64,000 nt of DNA from Macrostomum lignano (GCA_002269645.1 NIVC01000530.1:434001-498000); one strand, 5' to 3'; positions 57,601-60,155 are shown, numbered from the stretch's first letter. The notes: a model not told the origin generated them from the letters alone. Made by a program: numbers and translations.

Positions 57601-60155
57601 AATAAATTTTCTCCATCATGGTTTATCAAGATACGTGCCTATCCACCTGCTCTAGCTGTACAGTATTTTTTCTTAAGTAGAAATTTATATTCCAATTAAA
57701 TGATAGAGAAACGAGTGGCAAATTAATTTATTACTGTCAGATTGAAACCTCTAACATCGTAACAGTCGGTGTATTTTCCGAAAGCAAACAATCCATAAAA
57801 ACGAACACTAAAACACTCGCACACCAGCATTTCAGAAATAGCAGAGATAAAAAACAGCATAGTGCCGTCAGGCTGGATAATCATGTGCAAGCTAAAAGTA
57901 ATTTAGTTAGTCCAATGCATTCAAAGCATTCTAGCTGTTCAGTTATCAAAGCGAACATTGGGCTGCAGCCTCATCGCGTCCTGCCGACGAAGTTGAAATG
58001 GCAGCTTTCGCTTCTGCTGCTGCTGCTCACCGTCGAAGCCGCTGCATGCGCCCTGAACTGATACCACACCGGATCTTCCTCAAGGTTGGTGTCCCGCTGC
58101 GGAAGCAGTCCAGCATCAGAATCAACCGAAGGTATCGGTGTGGATGTGATTGGCTCAGTCACAATGCGCGGCCTTGTGGGCGAGCTAACGTCCTCGTCAT
58201 CAGCATGATCTCCGCCCTCATCAGTCTCCATTATGGGCTTCGTGTCCTGGTCAGCCTCCAACTTGAGCTTCTTGTCCTCTTCCTCCTCTTCCTCATCAGA
58301 CTCCAGCTCGTACTGCATTGTGTTCCTCAAGGGAGCCACCAGCTGACCGTCGATCCAGGAGGCGATTTTCCAGAGCTTCTGCCACAGCGGCGGAGTCAGT
58401 GGTACGGCGTTTCGTCTCAAAAACTCCTCGCAGCAATCTTCCGGCAGCCGTTTGAGCCAAATGATGCCGCCTTTGACTTCCACAAACTTATCGAAGCCGA
58501 GTTTCACGACCTTGGGCTCGTTGTTGCGTGCAGAAATCACAAGTGAGCGTTTCACCTCCTTCAATTTCTTCCATTGGTGAACATTCAGGTTGAATCCTGG
58601 GACGCCTGGCTTCAGACTTGCCGTGCTGCCGTGTCGGTAAAATTTGCGAATAGCGATAAATTTTTGTCCTTCAAACTCCTGGACTTGTGCCTTATAGCCT
58701 TCACAGATGTCCATTTTCCTTTCGCAATTGAAAACTCACAAAAGTTAAAAGCTGAGGAAAATTTCGGATGAAATTTTGGATTTGAAAATTGAGAATTCTT
58801 TCTTGTCAATTTCGGGGCTTATATACCCTCGACCGAACCACCCCAAACCACCCATCCCACTCCGGGCTCTGTGATTGGCTCTTTCGCAAACATTATTTCC
58901 ATAGATTACACATATCTCTGCATTAATGCATACTCTTATCTCTGCAGTGTTAACCACCCCCAATGCAAAGAGATAGGCCGCCTCTCCTCCTATCTCTGCA
59001 GTGTTAACCACCCCCAATGCAAAGAGATAGGCCGCCTCTCCTCCTATCTCTGCAGTGTTAACCACCCCCAATGCAAAGAGATAGGCCGCCTCTCCTCCTA
59101 TCTCTGCAGTGTTAACCATCTCCAGTGTAAAGAAATAGGCCGCCTCTTCTCCTATCACTCCTGTGTTAAGCAGAGATAGAGCTCATATCTCTGCAGTGCT
59201 TAGCCGTCCCAATGCACAGAGATAGAGCTCATATCTCTGCAGTGCTTAGCCGTCCCCAATGCACAGAGATAGAGCTCATATCTCTGCAGTGCTTAGCCGT
59301 CCCCAATGCACAGAGATAGAGCTCATATCTCTGCAGTGCTTAGCCGTCCCCAATGCACAGAGATAGAGCTCATATCTCTGCAGTGCTTAGCCGTCCCCAA
59401 TGCACAGAGATAGGGCTCATATCTCCGCAGTGTATTTTTCCCTATACATTTGCATTGCCGCCTATCTCGCCAGTGCTAGTGCGGCAGTATCATAATTCGC
59501 CCTACTACTACTCAAGCTCATTATCCTCACTGTTCAGCCTCAAAAGGATCGCTTACTGCTGTGAGCAATCATAGAATAAGTGGATATGCAAATCCCTGCG
59601 CTACCCGGTCGCTCTTTAGACTCGCTGGTGAATCGACATATCTGAGAATCTTCGATAGTCGACCAGAGCCGGAACTGGCTGCGCCATTGTTCAACGGCTA
59701 CGCCGGAAGTGCACAGCACCAGGCATCGCTTACGCACAGTGCAAGCGGCCGTAACGCCTACTAAAGTTTACCAGCTCCGCATGGCAGCACAATGACACCG
59801 CTGCGAGCTCTGCCATTGCCGAACATCTTATGCAACGATCTCTCCTGATACGGCCGCAGTGTAGTTAGCGGCTTCAAATCTATAGACAGATTCGGATTCT
59901 TCGTATCCTGACGGAAGTCGTACGGCCATCAGAGGATAATCCAGTTCAGTGCAGCGCTTCTGCAGCACTTCAATCATGCTCTGTTGCACTTCTAGAGATA
60001 CTCGGCTGGCCGATGCGGCCAAGTCCTCCGCGGTGGCGTCCTCTCGTCCAGCCGATCGTATAGGTCAAGGATGTCGCTAGAGTGTCGGTTGTCGATGCGG
60101 CGGCGGCGGCTGAGTCAGCCTGCTGTTCAGCCGCTGCGGCTGGCACAGTGCGGCC
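39601..60155 (-). CDS. ERCC3: TFIIH helicase/translocase XPB; 3' exons present, one intron holds the Polinton
   Basis: Exon ~59531-60155 has [25 protein letters not shown] and [14 protein letters not shown], with several 1-bp indels. Exon 41100-41879 has [23 protein letters not shown] and [13 protein letters not shown]. Exon 39601-39936 runs from GYAFKV to [13 protein letters not shown]. 5' exons not resolved near the gap. Confidence 0.93.
39970..41080. repeat. ~34-bp minisatellite in last XPB intron
   Basis: (CAACAAATCGTCACTAATAGATGGAATTCCCCCT)n. Confidence 0.93.
41970..42800. repeat. ~29-bp minisatellite carrying CCGGAAGT in XPB intron
   Basis: (AACCGGAAGTGGATTATTAGCTGTTTATT)n. Confidence 0.88.
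42835..42840 (+). other. Left target-site duplication CAAGCT (right copy 59513-59518)
   Basis: The same hexamer directly abuts both element ends; 6-bp TSDs are typical of Polinton integrases. Confidence 0.95.
42841..43180 (+). repeat. Left TIR including six 47-bp units
   Basis: AGTAGTAGGGCGAATTATGATACTGCCG... is the reverse complement of 59171-59512. Unit GCACTGCAGAGATATGAGCTCTATCTCTGTGCATTGGGGACGGCTAA. Confidence 0.95.
43554..43561 (+). promoter_or_regulatory. Candidate TATA box (TATATAAG) of left-end ORF
   Basis: 109 nt upstream of ATG 43663; the same octamer precedes the PC4-like and exonuclease genes. Confidence 0.6.
43663..45009 (+). CDS. Polinton left-end ORF of unknown function (Cys/His-rich N-terminus, basic patch, EAAGV and APAAL repeats)
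   Basis: Uninterrupted 448-aa ATG ORF with unique N- and C-terminal sequence; internal repeats of 15 and 18 bp keep the frame; preceded by a TATA box. Confidence 0.7.
   Translation: MKTFKSCHRDLYEVCISCEVCLLGGVSPRHHENENCLVSCWLACDQCGTVEALQEGKIPAYHRGHKIVSDDKKKQESNRWKVIRAIKKSNEREKKSQQKKGASRSLLSAHLSQVIDSTLKRMRPSGSSAAAEFEVELSAGVEAAGVEAAGVEAAGVEAAGVEAAGVEAAGVEAAGVEAAGVEAAGVEAAAVINFIEEDVLDQFLREFNAGQQQQQQQPVSSVPVIAGKQLHLIEDDHEMEILEEEGSDNESHNAIVPPAAPAAPAALAAPAALAAPAALAAPAALAAPAALAAPAAPAAPAALAAPAAPAAPAALAAPAALAAPAALSAPAALSAPAALAAPAALAAPAALAAPAALAAPAALAAPAAPAAPAALAAPAAPAAPAALAAPAALAAPAAPAAPAAASTIPASQSETPPVPAGVAFFLPPVGGAGYEVTIFENRIRIVPL
45894..50134 (+). CDS. Protein-primed family B DNA polymerase (pPolB), split by apparent frameshifts; probable 5' exon 45894-46254
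   Basis: Terminal-protein-like region with GSGW; DCFLY and EHW (vOTU-like Cys/His); exonuclease motifs [13 protein letters not shown] and YLEMDV; EndoVII-like CHYC..DHDH..CQECN; polymerase motifs [18 protein letters not shown] and GGDTDS. Frame changes near 48775 and 49190. The reading frame is open from 46474. Confidence 0.95.
50717..51289 (-). CDS. Divergent TATA-binding-protein (TBP)-like protein, ~190 aa
   Basis: Two TBP half-repeats. Repeat 1: [64 protein letters not shown]. Repeat 2: [30 protein letters not shown]. These align by eye with TBP QNIVSTVNL / [34 protein letters not shown] / YEPELFPGLIY..LLIFVSGKVVLTGAK. Confidence 0.88.
   Translation of the reverse strand: MSPPATALRVTNLVGGVDLRLDGGRGAQLPLRELALSMAHVIYRPVWPRVLIKRMRIPRVTLLLYPTGQLSICGAKTHADAKRAARRFVAMLHRRVPAQLLPHQTICVRIKTITAHGQLPVHSALSLLMLKSIIPNAEYEPESFSALIFNLNFCKCLLFHSGSFVLSGARSLNQLHTDSMRLLNVVLSIE
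50958..51809 (-). CDS. DEDD/DnaQ-like exonuclease-family protein (recognisable domain ~51390-51809)
   Basis: YIDFQGF..FVVKELA..H..YAPPYPW..KWNDG..Y..G.RK..V.NLEDLG.P..CA..N..W resembles the small nuclease-fold proteins of Polintons and insect DNA viruses. The 3' part of the ORF overlaps the TBP-like gene in another frame. Confidence 0.6.
   Translation of the reverse strand: MNYIDFQGFPCNSTSKKFVVKELAVVQIRAGSYHIAHHVYAPPYPWERVSPDMRVYYRQLSKSLHQFKWNDGTRPYMELAEDILSIASGPIWSNGERKSIFLTELLGRQVYNLEDLGAPSTEDSDTGCAVRNSLLHYSWLKPKFCINLRSEQCPWHTSSKVGRSRFGEEVDDRNEPTSYSPKSDQSGWRSRSETGWWQGRSAASTGTGSQHGSCDLPARLAPGAHQADADSQSDSPTLPYWATEHLRCQDPRRRQKGCPSLRGYAASESAGSTAASSNNLCSN
51851..51858 (-). promoter_or_regulatory. 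Candidate TATA box (TATATAAG) upstream of the exonuclease/TBP-like cassette
   Basis: Plus strand reads CTTATATA; 49 nt upstream of ATG 51809. Confidence 0.5.
51910..52530 (-). CDS. Conserved uncharacterised Polinton protein (PW/PZ-type)
   Basis: Intact 206-aa ORF; the [32 protein letters not shown] pattern resembles a conserved Polinton core gene. Assignment to a named family is uncertain. Confidence 0.65.
   Translation of the reverse strand: MNKFSEMVLIPKAEYEMLMQNLKPNETTTEADLKQAQKKCDDILYAEDCPEDVKTAMYQSAMQSLLAKRKHAGKEGARNTEAKLMKTETPQISTWEEKISKSVPQKFKTRARSLWTILSTNPELIRVCENGEVEIAGTSIPSSNILDLIQHTVRDSPCEREPVGWNEFIDFLQQKKLNVPLSAVGKSVKKKMATSRGVNWRKNRRV
52496..52774 (-). CDS. Small basic Polinton protein, probable structural accessory (true start may be ATG 52814 via a frameshift)
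   Basis: [38 protein letters not shown] pattern and position between the ATPase and the PW/PZ-type gene. Confidence 0.5.
   Translation of the reverse strand: MRFKRLLIKNCPKEVRYFLVEACHNLLQNNLSFSLDEKAVLAKSKEIIRKITHKRRKTDLLKAGFIKILPILLKLVKKKKQNEQIFRNGSDS
52875..53520 (-). CDS. A32/FtsK-like genome packaging ATPase (two apparent frameshifts)
   Basis: Walker A GPTNAGKT, Walker B LVVFDDL, then HH..LTQNIF, RTMSLN and YL.ILKNP, continuing in another frame as [18 protein letters not shown]. Confidence 0.92.
53593..54054 (-). CDS. Adenain/Ulp1-like maturation cysteine protease
   Basis: GHWV (His), FNSLG, RVQ (oxyanion Gln) and CGMFC (Cys) in the canonical order; lies between MCP and ATPase. Confidence 0.88.
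   Translation of the reverse strand: MDAIQLLNLARKFLPYQKFLIVTLHLRYKNSLPLNVKRKFRSSISFENKFVFVLLQHNGSFGHWVVCYVGQGNRIELFNSLGWEPEILSLVYNLFREIKTTGFWLRSNINRVQCANSNKCGMFCIYFAYQKFLFNRSFEGILKHLHANEKSFE
54060..55333 (-). CDS. Major capsid protein (double jelly-roll, PY-type), broken by about five apparent 1-bp deletions
   Basis: LDLF.TP..QT.IE..YV..P..PIEF, DL..S.LY, INQRVVS..YPY.AY, LP.FIMLAFV..AFNG and L.LEIRF..AL are found in successive frames. Confidence 0.88.
55362..55711 (-). CDS. Small Arg/Lys-rich putative core (DNA-condensing) protein, one apparent frameshift
   Basis: ATG at 55711 overlaps the inferred mCP stop (ATGA). Reads [12 protein letters not shown], then LYGCGSFPG and a basic tract [24 protein letters not shown]. 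The 350-nt span becomes whole codons if one base is restored. Confidence 0.55.
55708..56523 (-). CDS. Minor capsid protein (penton, single jelly-roll), two apparent frameshifts
   Basis: F.FYLP.PI.L..YE.GL.EI.LP..W.N at the N-terminus; [21 protein letters not shown] near the C-terminus. Confidence 0.8.
56563..57619 (-). CDS. Retroviral-like (RVE/DDE) integrase with C-terminal chromodomain, two apparent 1-bp deletions
   Basis: [52 protein letters not shown]; chromodomain [15 protein letters not shown]. Confidence 0.95.
57971..58714 (-). CDS. PC4/Sub1-like ssDNA-binding protein with a second degenerate PC4 repeat and acidic tail
   Basis: [37 protein letters not shown] matches PC4 VRDFKGKVLIDIREYW..KPGRKGISLNPEQWSQLKE. 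Intact 247-aa ORF. Confidence 0.85.
   Translation of the reverse strand: MDICEGYKAQVQEFEGQKFIAIRKFYRHGSTASLKPGVPGFNLNVHQWKKLKEVKRSLVISARNNEPKVVKLGFDKFVEVKGGIIWLKRLPEDCCEEFLRRNAVPLTPPLWQKLWKIASWIDGQLVAPLRNTMQYELESDEEEEEEDKKLKLEADQDTKPIMETDEGGDHADDEDVSSPTRPRIVTEPITSTPIPSVDSDAGLLPQRDTNLEEDPVWYQFRAHAAASTVSSSSRSESCHFNFVGRTR
58818..58825 (-). promoter_or_regulatory. Candidate TATA box (TATATAAG) of the PC4-like gene
   Basis: 111 nt upstream of ATG 58714; CCAAT-like element on the minus strand at ~58871-58880. Confidence 0.6.
58937..59150. repeat. Right subterminal 54-bp tandem repeat (~4 copies), related to the TIR unit
   Basis: TATCTCTGCAG recurs at 58937, 58991, 59045 and 59099, and shares the CAATGCA.AGAGATAG motif with the 47-bp unit. 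Confidence 0.85.
59171..59512 (-). repeat. Right TIR including six 47-bp units
   Basis: Near-identical inverted copy of the left TIR; differs by one extra terminal AGT and a 1-bp indel. Confidence 0.95.

Follow-up and report, generated by a model that had tools for sequence, protein, structure and literature searches.

An asymmetric two-repeat PC4-like protein predicted from a Polinton gene in Macrostomum lignano

We found that a Polinton/Maverick element of Macrostomum lignano carries a gene whose product, judged from its sequence and from structural models, joins two copies of one DNA-binding module, that of the PC4/Sub1 family, in a single asymmetric protein. The window that we analyzed is a stretch of 64,000 nucleotides (GCA_002269645.1, NIVC01000530.1:434001-498000), and all coordinates are counted from its first letter. 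The gene is an open reading frame (ORF) for 247 amino acids at 57971-58714 on the minus strand, at the position given in an earlier note on this DNA, and is present in one copy within the 64 kb. That note had described a clear PC4 domain, a degenerate second copy and an acidic tail, and had proposed that the two copies form an intramolecular pseudo-dimer serving as a single-stranded DNA-binding protein (SSB), a transcriptional coactivator, or both.

The ORF, taken as it stands in this copy, is laid out as follows, with all of its features on the minus strand. Repeat 1 (residues 1-63; 58526-58714) is the canonical PC4 repeat and was delimited by Pfam, by alignment to 1pcf and 4usg, by superposition on 6ycs and by counts of residues in aligned columns. 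A linker of residues 64-67 (58514-58525) connects helix 1 to the first strand of repeat 2 in the DSSP assignment of the model. Repeat 2 (residues 68-126; 58337-58513) is the degenerate PC4 repeat, delimited by hhalign, the MAFFT register, models, fold searches and column counts. The acidic tail of the earlier note corresponds to a poorly conserved segment, residues 131-180 (58175-58324), with 21 D/E and 4 K/R. It is followed by a conserved acidic-aromatic motif, EDP-x-WY (58052-58084), a pattern found in proteins P0001-P0004 and P0040 and, as a variant, in P0005.

The two repeats and their fold

Repeat 1 is recognizable as PC4 from its sequence. Residues 8-53 matched Pfam family PF02229 (E = 5e-8; 32.8 bits against a gathering cut-off of 25), in keeping with the clear PC4 domain that had been described, and PF02229 was matched by 15 of the 16 rows of the family alignment (see below). 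The window protein also found human PC4 by phmmer (E = 9e-5). In the model, repeat 1 superposed on PC4 (6ycs), the root-mean-square deviation (rmsd) being 1.2 Å over 64 residues. In PC4, bases are stacked by F77 and W89, replacing either of these by alanine abolishes binding, W89Y retains affinity, and R70, R86, R100 and K101 contact the backbone, with one subunit binding each strand (PMC4350104). Repeat 1 keeps F14 (F77 of PC4), R23 (R86), Y26 (W89) and K35-P36-G37; that is, the base-stacking pair is present as F14 and Y26. Y7, V38 and P39 occupy the positions of R70, R100 and K101. Across the 16 aligned rows, the R86 site is R in 15, the W89 site is Y or F in 15, the F77 site is F or Y in 9, and the G of P36-G37 is kept in 15. 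The R100 site is non-basic in all but one row, and the K101 site is P in 15 of 16 rows, compared to K in 127 of 140 canonical repeats.

Repeat 2 is hidden from standard searches. Pfam reported no family at E ≤ 1 for the region containing it (58310-58537), and PDB sequence searches with the window protein or with the family profile gave no match to repeat 2, PC4 chains being matched through repeat 1 only. Because both approaches failed to see it, dedicated tests were needed. We compared, with hhalign, a profile of residues 64-128 of the family to a profile of 149 canonical repeats. The probability was 88.3%, and the 56 aligned columns scored 30.1. This was above every one of 100 column shuffles (mean 9.2, maximum 14.1), and the reversed profile scored 7.8. 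The same comparison to the family's own repeat 1 gave a probability of 3.75%, which is not significant, and a score that was equalled in 1 of 100 column shuffles.

The predicted structure of repeat 2 also points to PC4. Modelled alone with AlphaFold2, using family rows only, it formed beta-beta-beta-beta-alpha with a predicted local distance difference test score (pLDDT) of 83.6. The top three matches to this model among 48,161 representative chains were PC4 (6ycs; Z 6.4, rmsd 3.0, 59 residues aligned) and MoSub1 (4bhm and 5zg9; Z 6.2 and 6.0); Borrelia Pur-alpha, BPSL1147, Pur-alpha repeat III and YdbC came close behind. Such Z values count as middling for this tool; the ranking is specific to PC4 and MoSub1. 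With Foldseek, ranks 1-9 were all PC4 or MoSub1, none of them at E ≤ 0.001. In the ESM Atlas, PC4 clusters scored 0.84-0.86 when repeat 2 was used and 0.90 when the two repeats were used together; we took these as leads only. The suggestion of a degenerate second copy thus held up, both in the profile search that had been proposed for the second half and in the fold searches, which might have refuted it by returning something other than a PC4 fold. Based on the profile comparison and the models, we conclude that repeat 2 is a PC4 repeat.

Repeat 2 has diverged from PC4 in ways that may bear on DNA binding. Its beta2-beta3 hairpin is 4-5 residues shorter, in the same register by hhalign and by MAFFT, and the part that carries F77 is gone. 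P91 occupies the W89 position (P in 11 of 16 rows), a short helix lies inside the beta3-beta4 loop, and there is no equivalent of the PG. That is, the stacking pair is absent. Basic residues are kept at three positions: K76 at the R70 position (K or R in 16 of 16 rows), K88 at the R86 position (K or R in 10 of 16) and R101 at the R100 position (R in 15 of 16). In addition, W86, at the position of D84, is aromatic in 12 of 16 rows.

The two repeats are predicted to fold together in one chain. The model of residues 1-137, built from family rows only, had a pLDDT of 86.4 and a predicted template modelling score (pTM) of 0.79, and pLDDT ranged from 83 to 86 across five models. DSSP assigned strands to residues 2-4, 7-14, 17-27 and 34-44 and a helix to 45-63 in the first half, and strands to 68-73, 76-81, 84-89 and 103-106, a short helix to 96-101 and a long one to 108-126 in the second. 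Each repeat is thus predicted to be a curved four-stranded sheet followed by a helix, and the predicted topology of the chain, beta4-alpha-linker-beta4-alpha, is the one by which type I PC4-like domains are defined. In a wide structure search the best match was Drosophila Pur-alpha repeats I-II (Z 9.6, 117 residues aligned, model residues 1-128), the sole chain at Z ≥ 8. Next were MRP (7.0), two cyanobacterial proteins (6.9 and 6.4), PC4 (6.3, matched through repeat 1 alone at rmsd 1.2) and Whirly (5.9). A second comparison, to human PURA repeats I-II, gave Z 10.5 and rmsd 3.4 with 119 residues aligned (model residues 1-127), and matches to Pur-alpha I-II overall aligned 115-120 residues at Z 9.4-10.5. 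A prediction of a two-copy complex of residues 1-130 scored 0.24 against a mark of 0.32 and was used neither way. We are highly confident, on the basis of these models, that the fold is a PC4-like two-repeat single-chain domain. The intramolecular pseudo-dimer proposed earlier is supported by the profile comparison, by the two AlphaFold models, the kind of check that had been suggested for it, and by the matches to single-chain type I domains.

The two halves are unequal in sequence and are under similar constraint. Identity to the three closest relatives is 77-82% for repeat 1 and 69-78% for repeat 2. Over all relatives, both repeats range from 23 to 82% and have invariant residues in common, and of the 14 relatives with both repeats, 8 have repeat 2 better conserved than repeat 1. 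As its conservation matches that of repeat 1, repeat 2 is a remodelled domain and not a decaying one. Repeat 1 keeps the stacking aromatics, and repeat 2 has lost them and kept basic residues, so probably only one channel for single-stranded DNA (ssDNA) works, that of repeat 1. Type I asymmetric domains bind a single strand, and MRP1 and MRP2 do so through backbone contacts only (PMC7549692, Janowski and Niessing); for this reason we infer that repeat 1 may be a stacking channel and repeat 2 an electrostatic face. DNA-binding residues vary among PC4-like proteins (PMC7145681). We had also considered a composite site, made of the aromatics of repeat 1 and the basic residues of repeat 2. This idea was dropped because each strand is bound by one PC4 subunit (PMC4350104). 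The earlier interpretation stands for the fold and is refined in one respect: as DNA-binding sites the halves are unequal, repeat 2 lacking equivalents of F77, W89 and the PG.

One position hints, and no more than hints, at a duplication within the family itself, as against one inherited from cellular tandem proteins: the E87 site is K or R in 15 of 16 rows in repeat 1 and 16 of 16 in repeat 2, compared to E in 129 of 140 canonical repeats. In a tree of 73 repeats over 62 columns, made from proteins other than those with three or four repeats, repeat 1 formed a clade with support of 0.926, and repeat 2 formed a separate, long-branched clade with support of 0.998; this tree is compatible with either origin.

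Relatives and known systems

A word-indexed search found 3 close relatives (70-75% identity) among 31 candidates, and phmmer, searching exhaustively with residues 1-137, returned 85 matches. These were sorted by eye into 13 family members, in which the match extended across both repeats or lay in repeat 2, and 72 others. The family alignment contains 16 rows: the 13, the window protein, and relatives P0002 and P0003. A profile search added one relative, P0089 (7 matches among 5578 candidates). Source labels, seen for a few relatives, were Logan, JGI, ENA, MMETSP and EukProt. There was no match in 50,697 phage records. Nor did the phmmer and profile matches include a protein made up of repeat 2 by itself; in P0040 repeat 1 is missing, but this protein looks truncated at its N-terminus.

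Most of the phmmer matches (65 of 85) are tandem PC4 proteins. Among the 72 others, 23 have two canonical repeats, 7 have three, 35 have four, 6 have one and 1 has none; the last, P0085, is a spurious repeat protein and was rejected. In 32 of the 35 four-repeat proteins the repeats form two close pairs (median spacing 69 and 68 residues) with a longer spacer between them (median 109). The spacing is ≤ 80 residues in 19 of the 23 two-repeat proteins and is about the same in the window protein. P0007-P0088 are a large and little-described set with two or four paired canonical PC4 repeats, and the one tested has a DEK_C domain. The paired-repeat proteins among them are likely symmetric single-chain PC4 dimers of microbial eukaryotes. 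They resemble the window protein in having closely spaced pairs (median 68-69 residues, among proteins of two to four repeats). They differ in that Pfam finds each of their repeats, whereas repeat 2 of the window protein falls in its own clade.

We compared the protein to known systems. With PC4/Sub1 (PF02229; 1pcf and 6ycs, MoSub1 4bhm, the phage T5 homolog 4bg7), both repeats share the fold, and repeat 1 is a member by sequence, with equivalents of F77, R86, W89 (as Y) and P98-G99. PC4, however, is a symmetric homodimer with two equal channels, and the window protein combines its two repeats, which are unequal, in a single chain. It has PG-x-PG in place of the PG-K-K-G of PC4, K or R in place of E87, a repeat 2 without both stacking aromatics, and a C-terminal acidic segment. 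With the type I domains (Pur-alpha I-II, MRP1/MRP2 and Whirly/P24; PMC7549692) it shares the single-chain two-repeat topology, at Z values of 10.5, 7.0 and about 6. Identity to these is only 7-11%, and no signature of PC4 can be detected in their sequences, whereas the window protein derives straight from PC4. Neither the protein nor the family profile had a Pfam or PDB sequence match to Pur-alpha, Whirly or MRP. We place the protein in PC4/Sub1 by its repeat 1, with a working predicted to be type I-like, and outside of the Pur, Whirly and MRP families.

The best and only significant match in BFVD was MOSUB of a Branchiostoma lancelet adintovirus (UniProt A0A5H3CIS2, 203 amino acids; E = 1.2e-5, TMq 0.69). 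This match extends over 167 columns and therefore covers both repeats. Identity was 17% and rmsd 6.2, the two being compared by predicted structure alone. Judged by this structural match, the annotation of an adintovirus already includes a protein with two PC4-like repeats. In the text extracted from Fig. S2 of Starrett et al. 2021, MOSUB occurs a single time, as a label on a map, adjacent to MAEL and an ITR; the main text of that paper has no mention of it (PMC8502044).

The single-chain PC4-like design is therefore known: it is a described class, and tandem PC4 proteins are common. In bay scallop, 3 of 5 PC4 genes have two domains, and two of those three are intronless; they were reported as host genes (PMC9223095). 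The tandem pseudo-dimer architecture of the earlier note is thus real and has precedents in the type I class (PMC7549692), the scallop genes and lancelet MOSUB. In the mainly open-access literature that we searched, we found no description of tandem PC4 in Polintons and no paper combining PC4, Polinton and single-stranded DNA-binding, or MOSUB and adintovirus. Nothing on PC4 or an SSB in these elements was present in the available parts of PMC11161782, PMC11131425, PMC11071296 and PMC11662393. One C. elegans paper that pairs PC4 with these elements was set aside, PC4 there being a cluster label. Within the literature searched, the asymmetric remodelling and a candidate SSB role in a Polinton appear to be undescribed.

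The Polinton element and gene signals

Polintons have long terminal inverted repeats (TIRs) starting with AG, a 6-bp target site duplication (TSD) and a length of 15-20 kb. The element in the window spans 42841-59512 (16.7 kb). It has ends of AGTAG, TIR arms of 303 nt that are 100% identical (42840-43142 and 59208-59510) and is flanked by the TSD CAAGCT (42835-42840 and 59513-59518). The TIRs hold 47-bp tandem repeats. It encodes the genes expected of a Polinton: protein-primed PolB (pPolB), an rve integrase and an adenovirus-type protease, with pPolB and integrase in pieces and below the curated cut-off. On these ends and genes we identify the element as an adintovirus-type Polinton. A fragment of a host XPB/ERCC3 helicase lies about 1 kb to its left (41028-41876, minus strand) and marks the host as a eukaryote; the type of element suggests an animal.

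PC4 is the outermost gene at the right end and is read inward. Adjoining it is the integrase with a chromodomain, in two ORFs (56563-57619, minus strand; PF00665 at E = 3.6e-6, below cut-off, and PF00385 at E = 1.2e-5). The cysteine protease is at 53593-54105 (minus strand; PF00770, E = 1.4e-4, above cut-off). The ORFs at 54056-56523 had no informative Pfam or NCBIfam match, and one had no PDB match either; we take them to be putative capsid genes by resemblance. An ORF at 52990-53553 had weak P-loop matches only. A TBP-like gene with two TBP repeats looks intact (50717-51328, minus strand; PF00352 at E = 1e-24; 35 PDB TBP sequences at E ≤ 0.001). Its best PDB sequence match is 1mp9, an archaeal-type TBP, and it overlaps, in another frame, the 3' part of the ORF at 50958-51809 (minus strand). 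The latter had no Pfam or NCBIfam match and presumably resembles DEDDh/MAEL proteins. In the adintovirus maps (Starrett et al., Fig. S2), MAEL is the label next to MOSUB, and TBP appears in a legend of that paper for viruses of non-animal eukaryotes (PMC8502044).

On the plus strand, pPolB occupies three ORFs in this copy (46666-50134). The first (46678-48780) matched PF03175 at E = 3.6e-4, below cut-off, and has an endonuclease VII-type domain ahead of it (PF02945, residues 384-422, E = 6.5e-6). The two later ORFs matched no family, and we take them to be PolB from their position and from PolB motifs. Upstream of PolB, in the position described for 'Oncoid' genes, a left-end ORF (43663-45009, plus strand) has an N-terminal cysteine-rich (CxxC) part and long low-complexity repeats and gave no noteworthy family match. 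The scanned ORFs of the element, several of which have no family, yielded no other SSB-like gene.

The 3' end of the PC4 gene is altered in this copy. The last ~20 residues of the ORF are unlike those of the relatives, and the counterpart of the relatives' basic C-terminus, KRKLP...LRRQ[ED]A, which resembles a nuclear localization signal, lies in another frame at about 57939-58013. Because of this mismatch and the displaced motif, we place a frame break between about 58013 and 58040 on the sequence evidence. The two-repeat module is intact despite the break. Among the 16 relatives, the four closest, P0002-P0005, have conserved LRRQ[ED]A while the tail around it has diverged; in the window it lies out of frame. 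Other genes of the element are broken up too, with PolB, integrase and the presumed capsid and ATPase genes divided among several ORFs despite identical TIRs and an intact TSD. Such ends, with 100% identity over 303 nt of TIR, suggest a young insertion with indel errors or fast decay; errors of assembly seem as probable a source of the breaks as decay.

The gene has candidate signals of its own. Promoter-like Pol II signals lie inside the right end at 58818-58878, with TATATAAG at 58818-58825 and CCAAT at 58874-58878; these are consensus matches only. An AATAAA at 57727-57732, the sole one on that strand within 57600-59000, is a candidate poly(A) signal. Three identical TATATAAG boxes, at 43554-43561 (plus), 51851-51858 (minus) and 58818-58825 (minus), stand 40-105 nt ahead of the ATG of the ORFs beginning at 43663 (left end), 51809 and 58714 (PC4). 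They could mark a common promoter class or be a site for the TBP of the element. The 64 kb contain the TATA pattern 10 times, compared to 4.4 expected, and 7 of the 10 are outside of the element.

Possible roles of the protein

The reading that we rank first, and to which we give somewhat less than an even chance, is that the protein is an asymmetric ssDNA-binding protein for strand-displacement replication. It is ranked first because pPolB displaces a long strand, because viruses with pPolB often encode SSBs without an OB-fold, and because the PC4 homolog of phage T5 is described as a replication factor (PMC4889955, PMC7549692). Protein-primed replicons generally need their own SSB, and acidic C-terminal tails are typical of SSBs (PMC4889955). 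The fold match to MOSUB (TMq 0.69), in another adintovirus, also speaks for it. As we picture it, the protein would be expressed early from the promoter at the end of the element and would be a monomeric pseudo-dimer with helices swapped between its repeats, as in Pur-alpha I-II. The sheet of repeat 1, with the PC4 base-stacking site, would bind ssDNA; that of repeat 2 would offer a basic face to the phosphate backbone or to an acidic partner, possibly the protein's own tail. The protein would coat and melt the strand displaced by pPolB, serving as the element's non-OB-fold SSB, and the tail could regulate binding, recruit partners and carry a nuclear signal. Fusion of the repeats would make dimerization unnecessary and prevent mixing with host PC4.

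Several points weigh against this role. Repeat 1 lacks three of the four named basic backbone contacts of PC4 (R70, R100 and K101), so its affinity for ssDNA may be low. Symmetry has been argued to favor unwinding (PMC7549692). The helix swap is inferred from the pTM of 0.79 and the full-length match to type I domains, and the family alignment, of 16 rows, is shallow. With a single MOSUB label in the text extracted from the adintovirus maps, the gene may be absent from many of these elements. Transcription is suggested by the TBP-like gene that the element also carries.

Transcription is the job proposed by the explanation that we rank second and consider clearly less probable. With the same single-chain fold, a viral PC4/Sub1 would work alongside host Pol II and the TBP-like protein, opening or licensing the TATA promoters of the element, and its acidic-aromatic tail would be an activation domain. 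Sub1/PC4 is present in Pol II pre-initiation complexes (PMC4350104), the gene is terminal and has its own promoter- and poly(A)-like signals, EDP-x-WY is conserved in the acidic tail, and the three identical TATATAAG boxes precede the ORFs at 43663, 51809 and 58714. However, the host in all likelihood has its own PC4 and TBP, as eukaryotes generally do, the row with the MOSUB label in the extracted map text of Starrett et al. has no TBP label, and 7 of the 10 occurrences of the TATA pattern, itself commoner than expected, are outside of the element. The two jobs can coexist and are not exclusive. A role as SSB, coactivator or both, as first suggested, fits the Polinton setting of pPolB and a TBP-like gene, as read from the sequence.

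The remaining explanations are less probable still. Loss of stacking residues from repeat 2 and of basic residues from repeat 1 could mean that repeat 2 is a structural partner or a protein-binding face. The protein would then act on the host, as a decoy or regulator of PC4 partners or of DNA-damage signalling, would hide viral ssDNA, and would block a CAMK-group kinase with LRRQ[ED]A as a pseudosubstrate. The CaMKII inhibitor peptide AIP includes LRRQEA (PMC6469190), and the motif persists in P0002-P0005 while the rest of the tail diverges. We find this improbable: the motif, a possible chance resemblance, spans six residues and is confined to the four closest of 16 relatives, it may be part of a nuclear localization signal, and the basic residues of repeat 2 are conserved at DNA-contact positions. 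We doubt even more that the repeats pair between molecules, repeat 1 with repeat 1 and repeat 2 with repeat 2, in a chain or filament on DNA. PC4-like pairing is conceivable because repeat 1 superposes on a PC4 protomer at 1.2 Å, and Pur-alpha repeat III does pair between molecules (PMC7549692). The single-chain models (five at pLDDT 83-86, the best with pTM 0.79), the whole-length match to intramolecular type I domains, and the spacing shared with canonical tandem proteins (two close pairs in 32 of the 35 with four repeats, ≤ 80 residues in 19 of the 23 with two) argue otherwise. Least credible of all is a decaying passenger without function in this copy. The frame break in PC4 and the fragmented PolB and integrase would suit it, but decay would concern the copy and not the family, in which both repeats are conserved at 23-82% identity; moreover, with TIRs identical over 303 nt and an intact TSD, the breaks may be assembly errors.

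An asymmetric SSB would matter for Polinton biology. Polinton replication has little biochemical support, and the PC4 gene product is a small, soluble, well-predicted candidate SSB with residue-level predictions for each half. The protein also seems to catch the transition from homodimer to single chain, one half being recognizable as PC4 and the other nearly erased, and is a plausible model for how type I domains like those of Pur and Whirly could have arisen from PC4. A further proposal, which we think rather unlikely, is that a Polinton lineage made the symmetric PC4 cofactor of its host into a polar single-chain SSB, with one half stacking on the displaced strand and the other purely electrostatic, and that this protein and a captured TBP give a 17-kb element its own DNA-melting module for replication and transcription. 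If this is true, then tandem PC4 proteins would be a so far unnamed class of SSBs of animal Polintons, and the intronless two-domain 'PC4 genes' of invertebrates would largely be Polinton genes.

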